From a virus, in UHGV virus genome UHGV-0139558: a stretch of 30,280 nt of DNA, one strand, 5' to 3'. The translations under genes were made by a program, and so were the position numbers. The notes below the pieces were generated by a model. That model saw only the letters and a list, made by a program, of their open reading frames with translations. It did not search any database and was not told where the DNA came from. Positions within the stretch are counted from its first letter, which is position 1; each line of letters opens with the position of its first letter. Shown in pieces: positions 2,932 to 7,885 of this stretch.

Positions 2932-3480
2932 TTAATTTCGCTGTCTGGATTGTTTATGTATCTTATGCAGCTCTTTAAAGCGTTCCATAAACATCCCGTA
3001 GGCATGGCCCGGTGCCAGTGGAATCACGTTGAACATCTCTGTTGCCGGGATGCCTTCCAGTACAGGCCAGAAAGAGCCATCATCAAGCCCGAGATCGCGG
3101 CGTTCGGTTGCCAGCATGATGAGATCGGCATATTTCACGGGCGTACTCATCACCGGGGGTAACCCGTATTTCTCACGGATCACGGCGTCTATTTTTTCTT
3201 CCATCTGTTTATAGTCAGGAAGAAGGCGTTTCAGTGGCGCGGGGATGTCCTGACAATAAGCTTCTGTTGCATCATGCATTAACGCTTCAAAAGCAAATTC
3301 CTGCGGTACCAGCTGGCTGCAAAGCACCGCATGTTGGGCGACGCTGTAGAAGTGTGAAAGATGTCCTGCAAAGCGACAGATATTTGAAAGGGAAACCGCG
3401 ATATCGTTAATAACGATGTCGTCTTTATTTATCTTGTCATAATAAAAATGCTTCCCGGAAAAAGTTTTAATAAATGACAT
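2932..3480 (-). CDS. HD-domain phosphohydrolase (YfdR-like prophage protein)
   Basis: Contains H...HD metal-binding signature ('HAVLCSQLV...ALMHDATEAY'). Start at 3480 has a GGAG RBS 7 nt upstream; the longer ORF start at 3510 has none. Confidence 0.65.
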   Translation of the reverse strand: MSFIKTFSGKHFYYDKINKDDIVINDIAVSLSNICRFAGHLSHFYSVAQHAVLCSQLVPQEFAFEALMHDATEAYCQDIPAPLKRLLPDYKQMEEKIDAVIREKYGLPPVMSTPVKYADLIMLATERRDLGLDDGSFWPVLEGIPATEMFNVIPLAPGHAYGMFMERFKELHKIHKQSRQRN

Positions 3481-3573
3481 TTTGTTCTCCACGTATATGT
3501 GCTGCGCCATACTGAATTTTGGTAAAAGGAAGCCCTCATCATCCGGCGATTATTGAGTTAATTACGTTTCCAT

Positions 3574-3595
3574 AAATGCCCCCGCAGGGGCATTT
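3574..3595. other. Perfect palindrome / hairpin between early-left genes
   Basis: AAATGCCCC-cgca-GGGGCATTT, 9-bp stem, 13 nt downstream of the stop of the 3608..4432 minus-strand gene. Confidence 0.4.
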
Positions 3596-3607
3596 GCAGT
3601 AATGAAA

Positions 3608-4432
3608 TCAGGCGCTGAAAGTACCAATGAAGGTTTCTACTTTGCTGTCTTTGAATTTCTCAACAAGCAGATCACGAAATTCGTTAGCCATTTCTTCCTG
3701 CACTGCTTCCAGCTGAATAATGCGCAGAACCAGTACAGGACGATCGCCAGTGATAATGCTGAGGCGTAATTTAAACGGACGTTCTTTCAGGCCTTCAAAC
3801 GGAACGCATTTAAATTCAAATGCCACTGGCATAATGTCTTTGGTCTTCGCTTCGACAGACTCCATCAGGGAGCGTTTGCCGCTGAAGTCATTATCTTCAA
3901 AATCAGCGGTCTGGTTTGCTTCAATCGTGATTTTACGGACTGCCGCAGCCGCTTTTGTTGCCTGAATGGCGTCACCATTAGCATCAAAGCCCACAAGGTA
4001 GTCGGCCCAGTCTTCAATCCATTCTGCCTGTGACTTCTGGGAGTTGCGCTCGCCGTTAACAGACAACAGAGCAGAGAACGGTGCTGTCTTTTTCAGTTTG
4101 AGAGTGGCGGTGTTATCTGCGTGACCTGGTTCATCAATAGTACCCAGGTTAAGCACACTGACGGCACGCATATTATCAGCATCGATAAAGCAGCGGGTGC
4201 CTTCATCTGCAAGATCTTTAGAATAACGGGTAAAGTCATCGATGCTGGCAGTGGAAAGCGCACCACGGAAACGGAAGCGATTTAAATTAAATTTTTCCAG
4301 ATCATGAATGCGGAAATTCTCAGGCAATGCCACAGCATCGGCACCAATCTTACTGATAATTTCATTAACACCCTGAGCAGAAATAAGGGCATGGATTTGA
4401 TTAATTGCGGTTGCGTCTAAGTTCTGAGACAT
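3608..4432 (-). CDS. Prophage early protein, DUF2303/YfdQ-like (function unknown)
   Basis: 274-aa ORF with GAGG RBS 6 nt upstream of ATG; sequence is recalled as resembling CPS-53-type YfdQ proteins. Family call from memory, not searched. Confidence 0.55.
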
Positions 4433-4497
4433 AATAAGTCCTCACTATATAAAGATATTCAGTGATGAGATAAATAATCAGTTTATTAATAACGATA

Positions 4498-4860
4498 TTA
4501 ATGACCTGCTGCGCGTAGTTTTCCGTCAGGCTCACCGGCAAGAGTCAGTAATTGTCCCTGGTCTTCCTGCAGAATAGTCAGGCGACCACCGCGATTGACA
4601 TACATCGGCGTTTCGGTGGTGTCTTCTTCGGAAATTTTCCCGCGGTTAGTCGGGCGAACATATGAGAGTTTGTGTTTGATTTTCACACGGTTCTCATCAA
4701 ATGGTTCGATTTCCAGGTTGAGTGAGACCTTACCTTTGGTTTTCGTGTTCATCACACCGGAAGCGACTTCACTGAGAACTGCGCCGATTTTGGTTTCAAA
4801 TACGCCGCCGTCCAGCTCCCCGATAAATGCCTGCACATCAGTACTGCGTTCGCTAGCCAT
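4498..4860 (-). CDS. Hypothetical prophage early protein (about 121 aa)
   Basis: Start set at internal ATG (4860) preceded by GAGGAG RBS; the 182-aa extended ORF upstream has Cys/Arg-rich low-complexity translation and no RBS. Confidence 0.5.
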   Translation of the reverse strand: MASERSTDVQAFIGELDGGVFETKIGAVLSEVASGVMNTKTKGKVSLNLEIEPFDENRVKIKHKLSYVRPTNRGKISEEDTTETPMYVNRGGRLTILQEDQGQLLTLAGEPDGKLRAAGH

Positions 4861-5331
4861 TTTGCTGCTCCTCATCATATCGACCCTGCAAGGTCGGTTG
4901 GTTTCTCCACAAAACAGAGAAGAACACCTGCGGTGGCAGCCGCCCGGATGGATTGGGTTATTAGCTCGTCGTCCGGTGATGCTCTTCTCTGTTTTGTAAA
5001 AAGAGCGGTACCAGCCGGAAGCAAGTGTACAAACTGGTACCGCCAAAGCAGTGGCTGTTGTGGTGACCGGTGCTGATCTCCGGCATGCGGTTATTTCAGA
5101 CTCTCACGGGCATTTAATTGCCCCGCCGAACAGCTCTTTTCTGCAATAGCTGCAATGTCTTTCGCGCATCAGCCTGCGCATTCACCACAACGCTAAGGAT
5201 TCTCTCTGGTTGAAAATACTTAGCTGTTATGTGCCTGCTTTTAGCCACATCAGGCGAGGTGGACCTGGTTATTCCCCAACAACAAGGATTCGGTTAATCT
5301 GGTTATCCCCAACAACGCAAAAGGAAAAGAA

Positions 5332-5766
5332 ATGTCCGGTAATATCTACACGTTGTACAAATCCCACTGTGAAAATGTTGGAAAGTATCGGGGCATTGAA
5401 ATCAGTGGGATAGTGTCATCAGTCGAAATAAGCAAAGTGGAATCAAGGGCAACATTACTTACTCTTCTGGATCTTGTCTTACATGAGCACCGGAAGAAAT
5501 TCGGCACTCCCTATAATCAGTTGAATGGGAAAAAGGCTCTGGTTCACCTTATTCTGATGAAGCATCACTGGATGCCAAAACAGATTAATGAGATGAAATT
5601 TGATGAACTTCTTCTTTCAATTCAGGATGAACTCACACTTGATAAAATAAGCGTAACCGCCCAGAAATTTTTAGATTATCGAGACTGGAGATCACAAATT
5701 CATCACTTTGATGATTTTGACGAAAATGAATGGGATCCTAATTTGTCTGCACAATATCTAAAGTAA
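5332..5766 (+). CDS. Hypothetical 144-aa protein, orphan gene oriented against the leftward early operon
   Basis: AGGA RBS 6 nt upstream of ATG; preceded by about 280 bp of noncoding DNA with direct repeats; 3' end overlaps the convergent 5738..5944 gene. Confidence 0.45.
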   Translation: MSGNIYTLYKSHCENVGKYRGIEISGIVSSVEISKVESRATLLTLLDLVLHEHRKKFGTPYNQLNGKKALVHLILMKHHWMPKQINEMKFDELLLSIQDELTLDKISVTAQKFLDYRDWRSQIHHFDDFDENEWDPNLSAQYLK

Positions 5767-5944
5767 CATCCTGTGATAAAACCGTGATTTCCTGATCCAG
5801 TTTTTTTAAGGAGTCTATTGTTTCCTGTCGATAAGACAGCACTTCACGAAGCTGGTTTATAGCTGCCAGCTTCTTTGTCATCCACTCATAAATTTCCTCA
5901 TCTGTGTAGCCAGGCGCGACGATTTTGGGTTCTGTTTTGTGCAT
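5738..5944 (-). CDS. Small hypothetical early protein (about 68 aa), first gene of leftward operon
   Basis: Start at 5944 preceded by GAGGAGGTG RBS; coiled-coil-like translation. Confidence 0.45.
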   Translation of the reverse strand: MHKTEPKIVAPGYTDEEIYEWMTKKLAAINQLREVLSYRQETIDSLKKLDQEITVLSQDVTLDIVQTN

Positions 5945-5992
5945 TTCACACCTCCTCAAGTTATCAGTTACTTGTTGATGGGGACCAGATTG

Positions 5993-6016
5993 TTAAAGAG
6001 CTAAGCGTCCTGTAGG
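5993..6016 (+). terminator. Candidate rho-independent terminator (plus strand)
   Basis: Stem AGCGTCC / GGGCGCT (one G-U wobble) followed by TTTTTTGTTG. Confidence 0.4.
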
Positions 6017-6099
6017 GCGCTTTTTTGTTGCTAACGAATCATCCTGGACTTCATATGCCCCAGGCGGCTACTTCGTGGGTGTCCTGCCTGTTCGTTGTC

Positions 6100-6160
6100 T
6101 TAACACCTTTAAGTTGTAATTTAGTTGTGGTTTTGAATGTTGTCAACAACTTTATGTGGT
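6100..6160. promoter_or_regulatory. Left operator region (OL-like) with repressor half-site repeats
   Basis: Motifs AACACCTTTAAGTTGT and CAACAACTTTATGTGG share the half-site ACAACTT/AAGTTGT with the cI-cro intergenic region. Confidence 0.5.
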
Positions 6161-6209: not shown

Positions 6210-6593
6210 ATGGAAGACGCGCTTTACGCTTTTAATTACACACAGAACCGGGACAAGTTATTTGCTAACTTGATTAGCATCATTGATGGAATCATTGCAG
6301 ATGGAGTTGTCCGTGAAGAGGAGGTTCTTTACTTAGATACATGGTTACTTGAAGCAAAGCAGATTATCAATAATGGAGTTATAAAAAGTCTATCTGCTCG
6401 GGTGTCGGATATTCTTGCGGATGGAATAATCACATCAGAAGAACGTGATGACCTTAAAAATAGCCTTCTCCAAATACAGAGGGAAATTCTTGATATCCCT
6501 GAAATTGATTTTTACTCCAAGGATGTAGATGTCCATTTACTTAATGGACTATGTAAAGGATTAATTGCTGATCGGAACTTAACTCAAGAATAA
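6210..6593 (+). CDS. TerB-like domain protein (about 127 aa)
   Basis: AAGGAGG RBS 6 nt before ATG at 6210. Two 'ADG-h-h-x-EE' motifs ('IADGVVREEEV', 'LADGIITSEER') as in TerB-family helical domains. AT-rich. Confidence 0.5.
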   Translation: MEDALYAFNYTQNRDKLFANLISIIDGIIADGVVREEEVLYLDTWLLEAKQIINNGVIKSLSARVSDILADGIITSEERDDLKNSLLQIQREILDIPEIDFYSKDVDVHLLNGLCKGLIADRNLTQE

Positions 6594-6632
6594 ATAAGAT
6601 ATCTTAATTGGTGGCTTGAGCAAAATGGAGCT

Positions 6633-7100
6633 TTGAAGAACAACTACCCAGGAAAAAAACTTTATGCACTTGTAAAGGAAATTCTTAAAGATGGTGTTAT
6701 TACTGAAGATGAGAGTTTAACTCTACATAAGGCATTAGTAGACTTCACAGGATGTGACTTGGAAAGTGGGGTGGTGGATGGTTTGGCGACCAGGCTGCCT
6801 ATTGATGTAGGGGCTTCGATAGAGTTAGAGGGTAAAACCTATTGTCTTACAGGCACTTTTGTTGCAGGAAAGAGAGCCGTAGTTGAAAATTTGATTAAAA
6901 ATGCTGGTGGGAACATCAGTAGTGGAATTACTCAAAAGTTGGATTTTTTAGTAATTGGGACGCTTTCCTCCCGTGATTGGAAATTCTCTAGTCACGGAAG
7001 GAAGATCGAAAAGGCTATATCTTATAGGGATGATAATGGTGCAAAACTTAAAATTATTTCTGAAGAAATGCTTTTCGATGCATTACCAAGTTCGCGATGA
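6633..7100 (+). CDS. BRCT-domain protein with N-terminal TerB-like half-motif; same frame as upstream ORF, separated by one TAA
   Basis: C-terminal 'GKTYCLTGTF...GKRAVVENLIKNAGGNISSGITQKLDFLVIG...ISEEMLF' matches the BRCT pattern of LigA C-termini. Listed ORF starts at TTG; frame is open back to the TAA at 6591. Confidence 0.5.
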   Translation: MKNNYPGKKLYALVKEILKDGVITEDESLTLHKALVDFTGCDLESGVVDGLATRLPIDVGASIELEGKTYCLTGTFVAGKRAVVENLIKNAGGNISSGITQKLDFLVIGTLSSRDWKFSSHGRKIEKAISYRDDNGAKLKIISEEMLFDALPSSR

Positions 7101-7769: not shown

Positions 7770-7796
7770 AACATATCCCTCTCTTTTTTGATGAGG

Positions 7797-7885
7797 TTAC
7801 AACTTTATGTTTTAGCTTTCCAACACCTAAAAGTTGTGGTAAAAGTTGTTAATGTTGTATTCTTGCAGCTCGTAACAACTTAACT
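7797..7885. promoter_or_regulatory. Right operator/promoter region (OR-like; pRM/pR expected here)
   Basis: Repeated half-sites ACAACTTTATGT, AACACCTAAAAGTTGT, AAAAGTTGTTAATGTTGT, GTAACAACTT between divergent cI and cro. Confidence 0.55.

Follow-up and report, generated by a model that had tools for sequence, protein, structure and literature searches.

A 30,280-nucleotide (nt) stretch of viral DNA (UHGV virus genome UHGV-0139558), the whole of which is called the window here, was analysed around a plus-strand open reading frame (ORF) of 144 codons at positions 5332–5766, which runs against the leftward early genes and is preceded by two direct repeats, A and B. The repeats were found to belong to a shared scaffold and not to the gene for the 144-amino-acid (aa) protein. 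A left block, composed of repeat A, the hexamer TAATCT and repeat B, and a right block, composed of an inverted copy of the repeat (arm C), a boxA-like element and a terminator, were common to at least 31 unrelated clusters of cargo genes. Our reading, to which a probability of about 0.58 is given together with the mechanism proposed below, is that the ORF is carried as cargo by a standard "opposed moron" scaffold, located at the promoter-proximal end of the early-left operon in lambdoid prophages of the SfIV/SfV/e14 type.

Repeat A (CTGGTTATTCCCCAACAAC, 5265–5283, plus strand) and repeat B (CTGGTTATCCCCAACAAC, 5299–5316) lie 34 nt apart and are identical save for one extra T, and a third GGTTA is found at 5292–5296. 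The composite pattern CTGGT-N0-5-CCCCA-N0-1-CAAC gave three matches in the 30-kb window against 0.00 expected (100 shuffles), the third being the inverted copy, on the minus strand at 5974–5988; the same scan detected no further copies elsewhere in the 30 kb. The two near-identical direct repeats and the third GGTTA reported in a preliminary description of this DNA were confirmed, and the two repeats, like the ORF, are far beyond chance. The inverted copy, boxA and the sharing of the repeats by a scaffold do not appear in that description. The absence of the repeats from homologous loci, an outcome considered in the same description, was seen in none of 120 near-identical loci: the repeats were kept in all of them, in seven variants with one or two substitutions each.

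The 55-nt block from A to B was present in 1042 of 5426 complete Escherichia coli genomes, about a fifth, and was never annotated. In E. coli S42 and UMNK88, the A-TAATCT-B block stands ahead of unrelated genes for proteins of 171 and 164 aa, respectively, and the right end carries the same boxA and terminator block. A search of viral contigs for the repeat A core gave 120 loci. A set of 236 scaffold copies comprised 59 distinct end combinations and the at least 31 cargo clusters, and in 214 of these copies the boxA complement was located 447–864 nt downstream. The cargos included several relatives of the ECs1072 family, a large family with a coiled coil and four cysteines, and a secreted LprI-like protein; none of the cargos identified has a known function. 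The most diversified cargo was a group of proteins of 147–178 aa that start with MIAELSAAM and combine a coiled coil at the N terminus with a CPxC...CxxC motif at the C terminus (L133:557-1072, L230, L221, L233, L251, L150, L151, L164, L165 and L186); they showed no match to a known family or defence model. In a limited literature search, no scaffold was found described that is reused in this way and combines a duplicated promoter unit and co-varying arms with boxA and a one-way terminator.

The limits of the unit were obtained by comparison with related phages. Over positions 4400–6100 the window shares about 98% identity with SfIV (gp36), vB_EcoS-569R4 and other phages, the repressor regions of which differ. 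SfV matched at 4400–5262 and 6033–6098 only and was missing 5263–6032. Since the identity to SfV stops at 5262 and resumes at 6033, the segment 5263–6032 is a replaceable unit. Its GC content (0.37–0.41 across 5300–5900) is below that of the DNA to its left (0.50–0.53 at 4700–5300). The flanks of the site were found in 2370 of the 5426 complete E. coli genomes and the present cargo in 407. The left conserved flank (5177–5262), common to prophages of any cargo including e14 and SfV, was matched (query positions 28–113) in most of the 2370 genomes with any match. The right conserved flank (6033–6098, minus strand), the leader of the leftward early transcript, was also found in E. coli genomes with other cargos. 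This leader was conserved in thousands of E. coli genomes, independently of immunity type or cargo. A structured, put-like leader was considered for 6033–6098 and rejected, its fold being no better than that of shuffled sequences (z = 0.21).

At the same site, prophage e14 of E. coli K-12 carries two overlapping convergent genes in the ymfH/ymfI region, ymfI on the plus and ymfJ on the minus strand, and three further genomes carry other plus-strand genes. In SfV (L009, U82619) an unannotated plus-strand ORF of 81 aa was observed at 3399–3644, facing orf33 and preceded by the extended -10 element TGGTATCCT. Because e14, SfV and the three further genomes all have one, a plus-strand gene set against the early-left operon is the rule at this locus. 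Morons of lambdoid phages, of which gp15 of HK97 is an example, are one of the close terms of comparison. The passage of PMC4104026 that cites Juhala et al. (2000) gives a moron as a gene with its own promoter and terminator placed between conserved genes. The present cassette resembles lambdoid morons in being an extra low-GC gene missing from collinear relatives, with its own terminator and a promoter-like element, and presumably expressed in the repressed prophage. It is unlike them in being inserted against an essential early operon, in occupying a fixed scaffold that accepts at least 31 different cargos, and in having a boxA on the opposite strand, flanking inverted repeats and a convergent partner gene. 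The term "moron" used in the preliminary description was therefore right in kind, in that the cassette is replaceable, low in GC, equipped with its own terminator and provided with a promoter-like element at the position typical of the family.

The best match to the sigma-70 position weight matrix upstream of the ORF was TTCCCC-17-TAATCT (score 5.7). The predicted -35 hexamer TTCCCC (5272–5277) is held by repeat A, and the predicted -10 hexamer TAATCT (5295–5300, plus strand) overlaps the third GGTTA and ends 31 nt before the ATG. Transcription is predicted to start at about 5305–5308, near 5306 in repeat B. In relatives with a single unit (Serratia, L048) and in the sister cassettes of e14 and SfV, the best sigma-70 match was an extended -10 element, TGnTAnnCT, ending 27–35 nt before the start codon and scoring 8.5–9.4, which is near or above the 90th percentile (8.8) of tiles of the window. 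In L132, also a relative with one unit, the element TGgTAGTCT, identified by eye, lies 37 nt before the start, and in prophage Sp4 of E. coli Sakai a perfect TATAAT lies 38 nt upstream of ECs1072. Alignment on the start codons placed TAATCT of the window at the -10 position of the relatives and CCCCAACAAC of repeat B against the C/A-rich leader of the single-unit relatives. Nearly all of the listed scaffold variants kept TAATCT, some having TATAATCT or GATAATCT, and the UMNK88-type scaffold TTATTATG. Repeat A with the spacer that follows it was the best conserved non-coding block of the cassette. In comparison with L005, in which the cassette is 59% identical and synonymous divergence is saturated, the only 20-nt windows with 100% identity were 5271–5300, which is exactly the stretch from -35 to -10, and 5991–6010, which covers boxA and the terminator. 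On the basis of these alignments, repeat A would be promoter DNA (the -35 element and spacer), the third GGTTA the -10 element and repeat B the start of the mRNA. The repeats would then be a 34-nt tandem duplication of the promoter-leader unit of the family, the upstream duplicate being repeat A and the DNA to its left, in which the -10 position of repeat A has probably decayed to GGACCT; Tandem Repeats Finder does not call this 34-nt duplication.

An alternative function of the repeats and their inverted copy would be that of operators for a DNA-binding regulator (DnaA, CI/Cro or a protein of the cassette) that acts on the cargo promoter and also, by way of copy C, on the early-left leader. 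The three copies are each oriented towards the gene they precede, and conservation extends to the spacer separating the -35 and -10 hexamers, beyond the needs of a plain promoter. In addition, a dyad GGATT-N5-AATCT (5286–5300) with 5-bp arms shows one compensatory change in L003. The conserved spacer and the small dyad leave room for a bound factor. The preliminary description had taken the repeats for DnaA-box-like sequences with one mismatch. This was correct for repeat B, in which TTATCCCCA (5303–5311) differs from the box at one position, and incorrect for repeat A, and the mismatch of repeat B falls in the CACA core. One-mismatch matches to TTATNCACA were not significantly enriched in the window (12 versus 7.0 ± 2.7 expected; 5 of 100 shuffles reached 12), so that DnaA boxes were not borne out. 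Sites for the phage CI/Cro proteins, also proposed before, share AACAAC with the repeats as far as the CI operators of the window are concerned; however, the right and left operators here (OR/OL) are built on ACAACTTWA, and the same cassette with identical repeats is found beside several different immunity regions and ahead of unrelated cargos, which goes against this assignment. A specificity factor encoded by the cassette is unlikely because the same repeats precede unrelated cargo proteins; no DNA-binding domain or fold was seen in the cargo or in its 68-aa partner, and there are no additional copies in the 30 kb. A by-eye comparison with the sigma-54, sigma-32, sigma-E, LexA, ArcA, PhoP and IHF consensus sequences gave no convincing match. 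Altogether, an operator function of the repeats is considered improbable.

It is also very improbable that the C/A-rich repeats are target sites for GcvB/Hfq or form a structured 5′ untranslated region that controls translation. The sequence CAACAAC is complementary to GUUGUUG in region R1 of GcvB, and AACAACAAG fits the Hfq-bound ARN motif (background in PMC4104026, according to which small RNAs of the AgvB type sit elsewhere, at PR′). Yet the duplex with GcvB R1 (-19.0 kcal/mol) was within the range of shuffled sequences (-18.2 ± 2.9), and 65% of the window segments paired as well. The consensus fold of the leader reached only -1.9 kcal/mol, Rfam yielded no match at the gathering threshold, the remaining hits being noise with E-values above 1, and repeat A is probably not transcribed.

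The right end of the scaffold, as read on the minus strand, contains in order a candidate early-left promoter (pL), a terminator hairpin approached from its weak side, boxA, arm C, and the Shine-Dalgarno (SD) sequence and gene of the 68-aa protein. The predicted pL (TTGACA-17-TAAATT, 6118–6146, minus strand; 10/12 match) lies among operator-like ACAACTTWA repeats, a motif shared with the cI/cro intergenic region at 7795–7885. The predicted intrinsic terminator of the cargo transcript (6003–6028, plus strand) consists of AAGCGTCC-TGTA-GGGCGCTT followed by T6 and is one-way: the hairpin at 6003–6022 has a folding energy of -11.5 kcal/mol (z = -4.0) with U6 on the plus strand, and of -7.5 kcal/mol with no U tract on the minus strand. 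Hairpin and T-run were present in 39 of 45 distinct scaffold tails, with a U·G pair kept in the variants inspected. The boxA-like element GCTCTTTAACAA (5990–6001, minus strand) would be part of the leftward transcript. It matches the core GCUCUUUAACAA as an exact 12-mer, the only exact match in the window, and is located about 110 nt downstream of the predicted pL; by our own arithmetic, the chance expectation for an exact 12-mer in 60 kb is about 0.004. It was conserved in L004, L005, L133 and L134 and in 214 of the 236 scaffold copies. No second boxA was found in the pR operon, and no boxB hairpin was seen beside boxA by eye, no systematic search having been made. As in lambda nutL/N, the leader that separates pL from the first early-left gene contains a boxA; the arrangement differs from it in that the first pL gene encodes an acidic protein of 68 aa that is not N-like and in that no boxB was seen by eye.

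Repeat B is at the same time the left arm (TCTGGTTATCCCCAACAAC, 5298–5316, plus strand) of an inverted repeat that flanks the cargo, and forms the C/A-rich leader before the SD sequence. The right arm, arm C (TCTGGTCCCCATCAACAA, 5972–5989, minus strand), lies directly 3′ of boxA. Arms B and C were complementary in every cargo type and changed together, as in GGATATCC, GGATGACT, GTAACCCTC and, in the window, GGTTATCC/GGT---CC. Co-variation was measured on 38 distinct arm pairs over a 16-bp helix, with 500 shuffles and slid arms as controls. The helix was 83.6% paired, versus 80.1 ± 0.7 in the shuffles, none of which reached the observed value, and changes on both sides were observed in 8 of the 16 pairs, a number that 3 of 500 shuffles reached; the slid controls gave 23–49%. 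An earlier analysis of 5′/3′ pairing in broad windows, superseded by that of the anchored arms, had shown no lineage-specific signal. The duplex of an element's own arms was better on minus-strand RNA in 24 of 31 cargo types (p = 0.003), 64 wobble pairs fitted the minus strand versus 25 the plus strand, and the best-matched half of arm B (TCTGGATAT) is upstream of the predicted plus-strand start. These three observations modestly favour the leftward RNA as the pairing strand.

The same three observations bear on a different role of the inverted repeat, in which it would act in the plus-strand cargo mRNA, the 5′ end being clamped to the region before the terminator and the message stabilised, or its translation gated, in the manner of fbi/tac of hok. 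Own-pair duplexes on the plus strand are favourable (mean -25.0 kcal/mol; -24.6 in the window), in 39 of 45 scaffold variants the cargo terminator follows directly on the right arm, and co-variation alone does not distinguish the strands. Against such a clamp, the TCTGGATAT half would be outside the mRNA, the pairing energies and wobble pairs point to the minus strand, and L003 has a terminator-like hairpin ahead of the right arm. We regard the clamp as unlikely.

There is likewise little probability that the arms are terminal inverted repeats acting at the DNA level in recombination that mobilises or inverts the cargo, with the direct repeats as by-products. Imperfect inverted repeats of 15–20 bp do bracket a highly variable insert, and the arms of one element are more alike than those of some other elements (GGATGACT or GTAACCCTC instead of GGATATCC). 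Nevertheless, no recombinase or transposase was found in or beside the cassette, and the inverted orientation was observed in none of 216 cargo copies and none of 120 loci of the present cargo. Moreover, the arms overlap the -10 element and abut boxA, which fits transcription signals, and the conserved flanks are enough for exchange by homologous recombination.

The cargo itself is a real, conserved gene under purifying selection. The ORF starts with ATG at 5332 and stops at 5766, and the SD sequence AAGGA (5321–5325) is 7 nt 5′ of the ATG; these coordinates, the ribosome-binding site, the opposition to the early-left genes and the 29-nt overlap with the 5738–5944 gene agree with the preliminary description. 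A homology search with the ORF, which that description had suggested, gave a full-length match to NCBIfam NF033230, "ECs1072 family phage-associated protein" (157.8 bits, cutoff 70; residues 4–144 against profile positions 2–142 of 142), and a match to phrog_5286. The family has a name only, with no function assigned. With 76 clusters (50% identity) among 1.84 billion representatives, it is a small one; at least 1000 contigs encode the exact 144-aa protein. The ratio of non-synonymous to synonymous substitution rates was 0.20 versus the copy of Escherichia albertii and 0.12 versus a relative with 56% identity. The protein was modelled by AlphaFold2 with confidence as all helices (predicted local distance difference test score 93.5), and no relative of this model was found in the Protein Data Bank (PDB); sequence searches of Pfam, PADLOC and the PDB gave no match. 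In the SfIV paper the product is listed merely as a unique protein of unknown function (PMC3851460).

The designation "orphan", given to the gene before, is not appropriate, since it belongs to NF033230, with relatives down to 34% identity, and has a conserved convergent partner. The partner (5738–5944, minus strand; phrog_1744) has the SD sequence GAGGAGG, encodes 68 aa and comes first among the ORFs of the leftward early transcript; the 29 nt that it shares with the cargo are the 3′ end of the latter, the terminator of which sits past the start codon of the partner. The 68-aa protein is acidic and not arginine-rich, and its homologues are hypothetical proteins only. Its N-terminal motif, M-x-K-x-EP...EE-x-x-W-L/M-x-x-K, was shared by the small convergent genes that accompany relatives of the cargo down to 34% identity, namely those of E. 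albertii, Serratia, L132, two metagenome loci and Sakai Sp4. The L003/L047 lineage keeps the cargo and has lost the partner, of which a 7-codon remnant is left. A toxin–antitoxin pair was considered and rejected: the loss of the partner in L003/L047 and the convergent layout, in which the genes are not co-transcribed, argue against it, and no hidden Markov model for toxin–antitoxin or defence systems gave a match.

Two other prophages have homologues of the cargo in different surroundings. In Sakai Sp4 (L130 9361-9816; 9168 onwards) the prototype ECs1072 (present designation ECs_5703) lies between the cII-like gene and the O gene and is directed against the pR operon, and not against pL as in the window; it faces an unannotated partner ORF with the N-terminal motif of the 68-aa protein, in the same relative orientation as in the window. 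A microarray signal has been reported for Sakai ECs1072 (PMC2241611). This signal and the excludon listing of the e14 pair given below bear only indirectly on expression of the cargo in lysogens. In the prophage of L132, a CsrA-like gene (L132:2-169) directly adjoins the ECs1072 homologue, which is 38% identical.

The mechanism that we propose for the opposed moron scaffold is as follows. In the lysogen, with pL repressed, the weak scaffold promoter would drive a cargo mRNA that is antisense to the 68-aa gene on its way to the terminator at 6003–6028, where it would end. After induction, the pL transcript would meet the terminator hairpin from its weak side and pass it, load host Nus factors at boxA and so become resistant to Rho across the antisense cargo. 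It would be translated into the 68-aa protein, run antisense through the cargo and continue into yfdP/yfdQ, while arm C might pair with the complement of arm B and loop out the opposed insert of 650 nt. Convergent transcription would silence the cargo, a mutual exclusion of the excludon type. From position and regulation we would guess that the cargo is a protein that benefits the lysogen or is related to superinfection, and that the partner acts in lytic growth.

The e14 pair ymfI-ymfJ is a close known counterpart. It occupies the same site, from the ymfH/yfdP side to a CI-like repressor, with the same flanks and a convergent overlapping layout. It has been listed as a convergent excludon from RNA-seq data (PMC12288877), and ymfJ is induced late in the SOS response, far more strongly than ymfI (PMC11002266). 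It differs from the window in that the proteins are unrelated, the extended -10 element (TGGTATGCT) is clear, there is a single unit with no A/B duplication, and boxA, the inverted arms and the terminator block are lacking.

In the leader of the rrn operons, boxA is followed by long-range stems that loop out the 16S rRNA, with antitermination by Nus factors and processing by RNase III. The leftward transcript of the scaffold is like this leader in that a long-range helix has its 5′ arm directly after a boxA core identical at 12 of 12 positions and its 3′ arm 580–790 nt downstream, and in that the enclosed segment is untranslated on that strand. The two differ in that the helix of the scaffold is about 16 bp long and imperfect, and encloses an antisense protein gene instead of a structural RNA. 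By this analogy, boxA and the distant-arm helix may form an rrn-like, Nus-assisted long-range RNA loop that acts as a general insulator for genes inserted backwards, a suggestion that we put forward tentatively and hold to be doubtful.

Several points weigh against the scaffold and mechanism as proposed. The score of the predicted promoter (5.7) does not exceed the median best match of random 210-nt tiles (6.0), its -35 element is poor and it has no extended TG. The high conservation of the spacer is unexpected for a plain promoter and hints at a bound factor or at a role in RNA. Scaffold copies were gathered by means of the A core and boxA as anchors, so that their conservation across cargos is partly by construction. 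The preference of the arms for the minus strand is modest (83.6% versus 79.9% paired) and in part expected, because arm B is C/A-rich; their co-variation may stem from gene conversion or from common descent of a palindrome, and arm C of L005 is poorly conserved (40–50%). Finally, the sister scaffolds of e14 and SfV carry an opposed cargo without boxA or arms, so that these elements would be helpful and not obligatory.

Some features of the neighbouring DNA were also recorded. The genes to the left (3608–4432 and adjoining) are homologues of yfdP and yfdQ of the CPS-53 prophage of K-12. YfdR has been reported to bind DnaA, and overexpression of yfdQ-yfdT to inhibit the initiation of replication (PMC4776307), which is a link to DnaA for the operon and not for the repeats. 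The gap of 470 nt between the start of yfdP and the cargo promoter contains two strong inverted repeats, 4909–4933/4973–4997 (25-nt arms, 84% complementarity) and 5005–5014/5034–5043 (10-nt arms, 100% complementarity); neither has an Rfam match, and both are conserved in the E. albertii locus. To the right, between OL/pL and cI and convergent with the latter, a 296-aa BRCT-domain gene (6210–7100, plus strand; phrog_3989) is split by a single nonsense change of GAA to TAA (stop at 6591–6593); apart from this, it shares 99.3% identity with intact copies.

On its own, the ORF only adds to the list of hypothetical prophage genes, and the interest lies in the widespread, unannotated scaffold in which it is found. 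Genes with likely expression in lysogens could be collected by sequence, with the A core, TAATCT, the arms, boxA and the terminator as handles; such cargos are candidates for superinfection exclusion, defence or host modulation. The scaffold also raises the question of how an essential phage operon tolerates an opposed gene, to which boxA and the co-varying helix suggest an answer similar to that of the rRNA operons. If the insulator were real, the early-left transcript would read through the opposed gene, fold it away and perhaps excise it (RNase III), and phages could swap dozens of opposed, lysogen-expressed cargos without breaking the operon.

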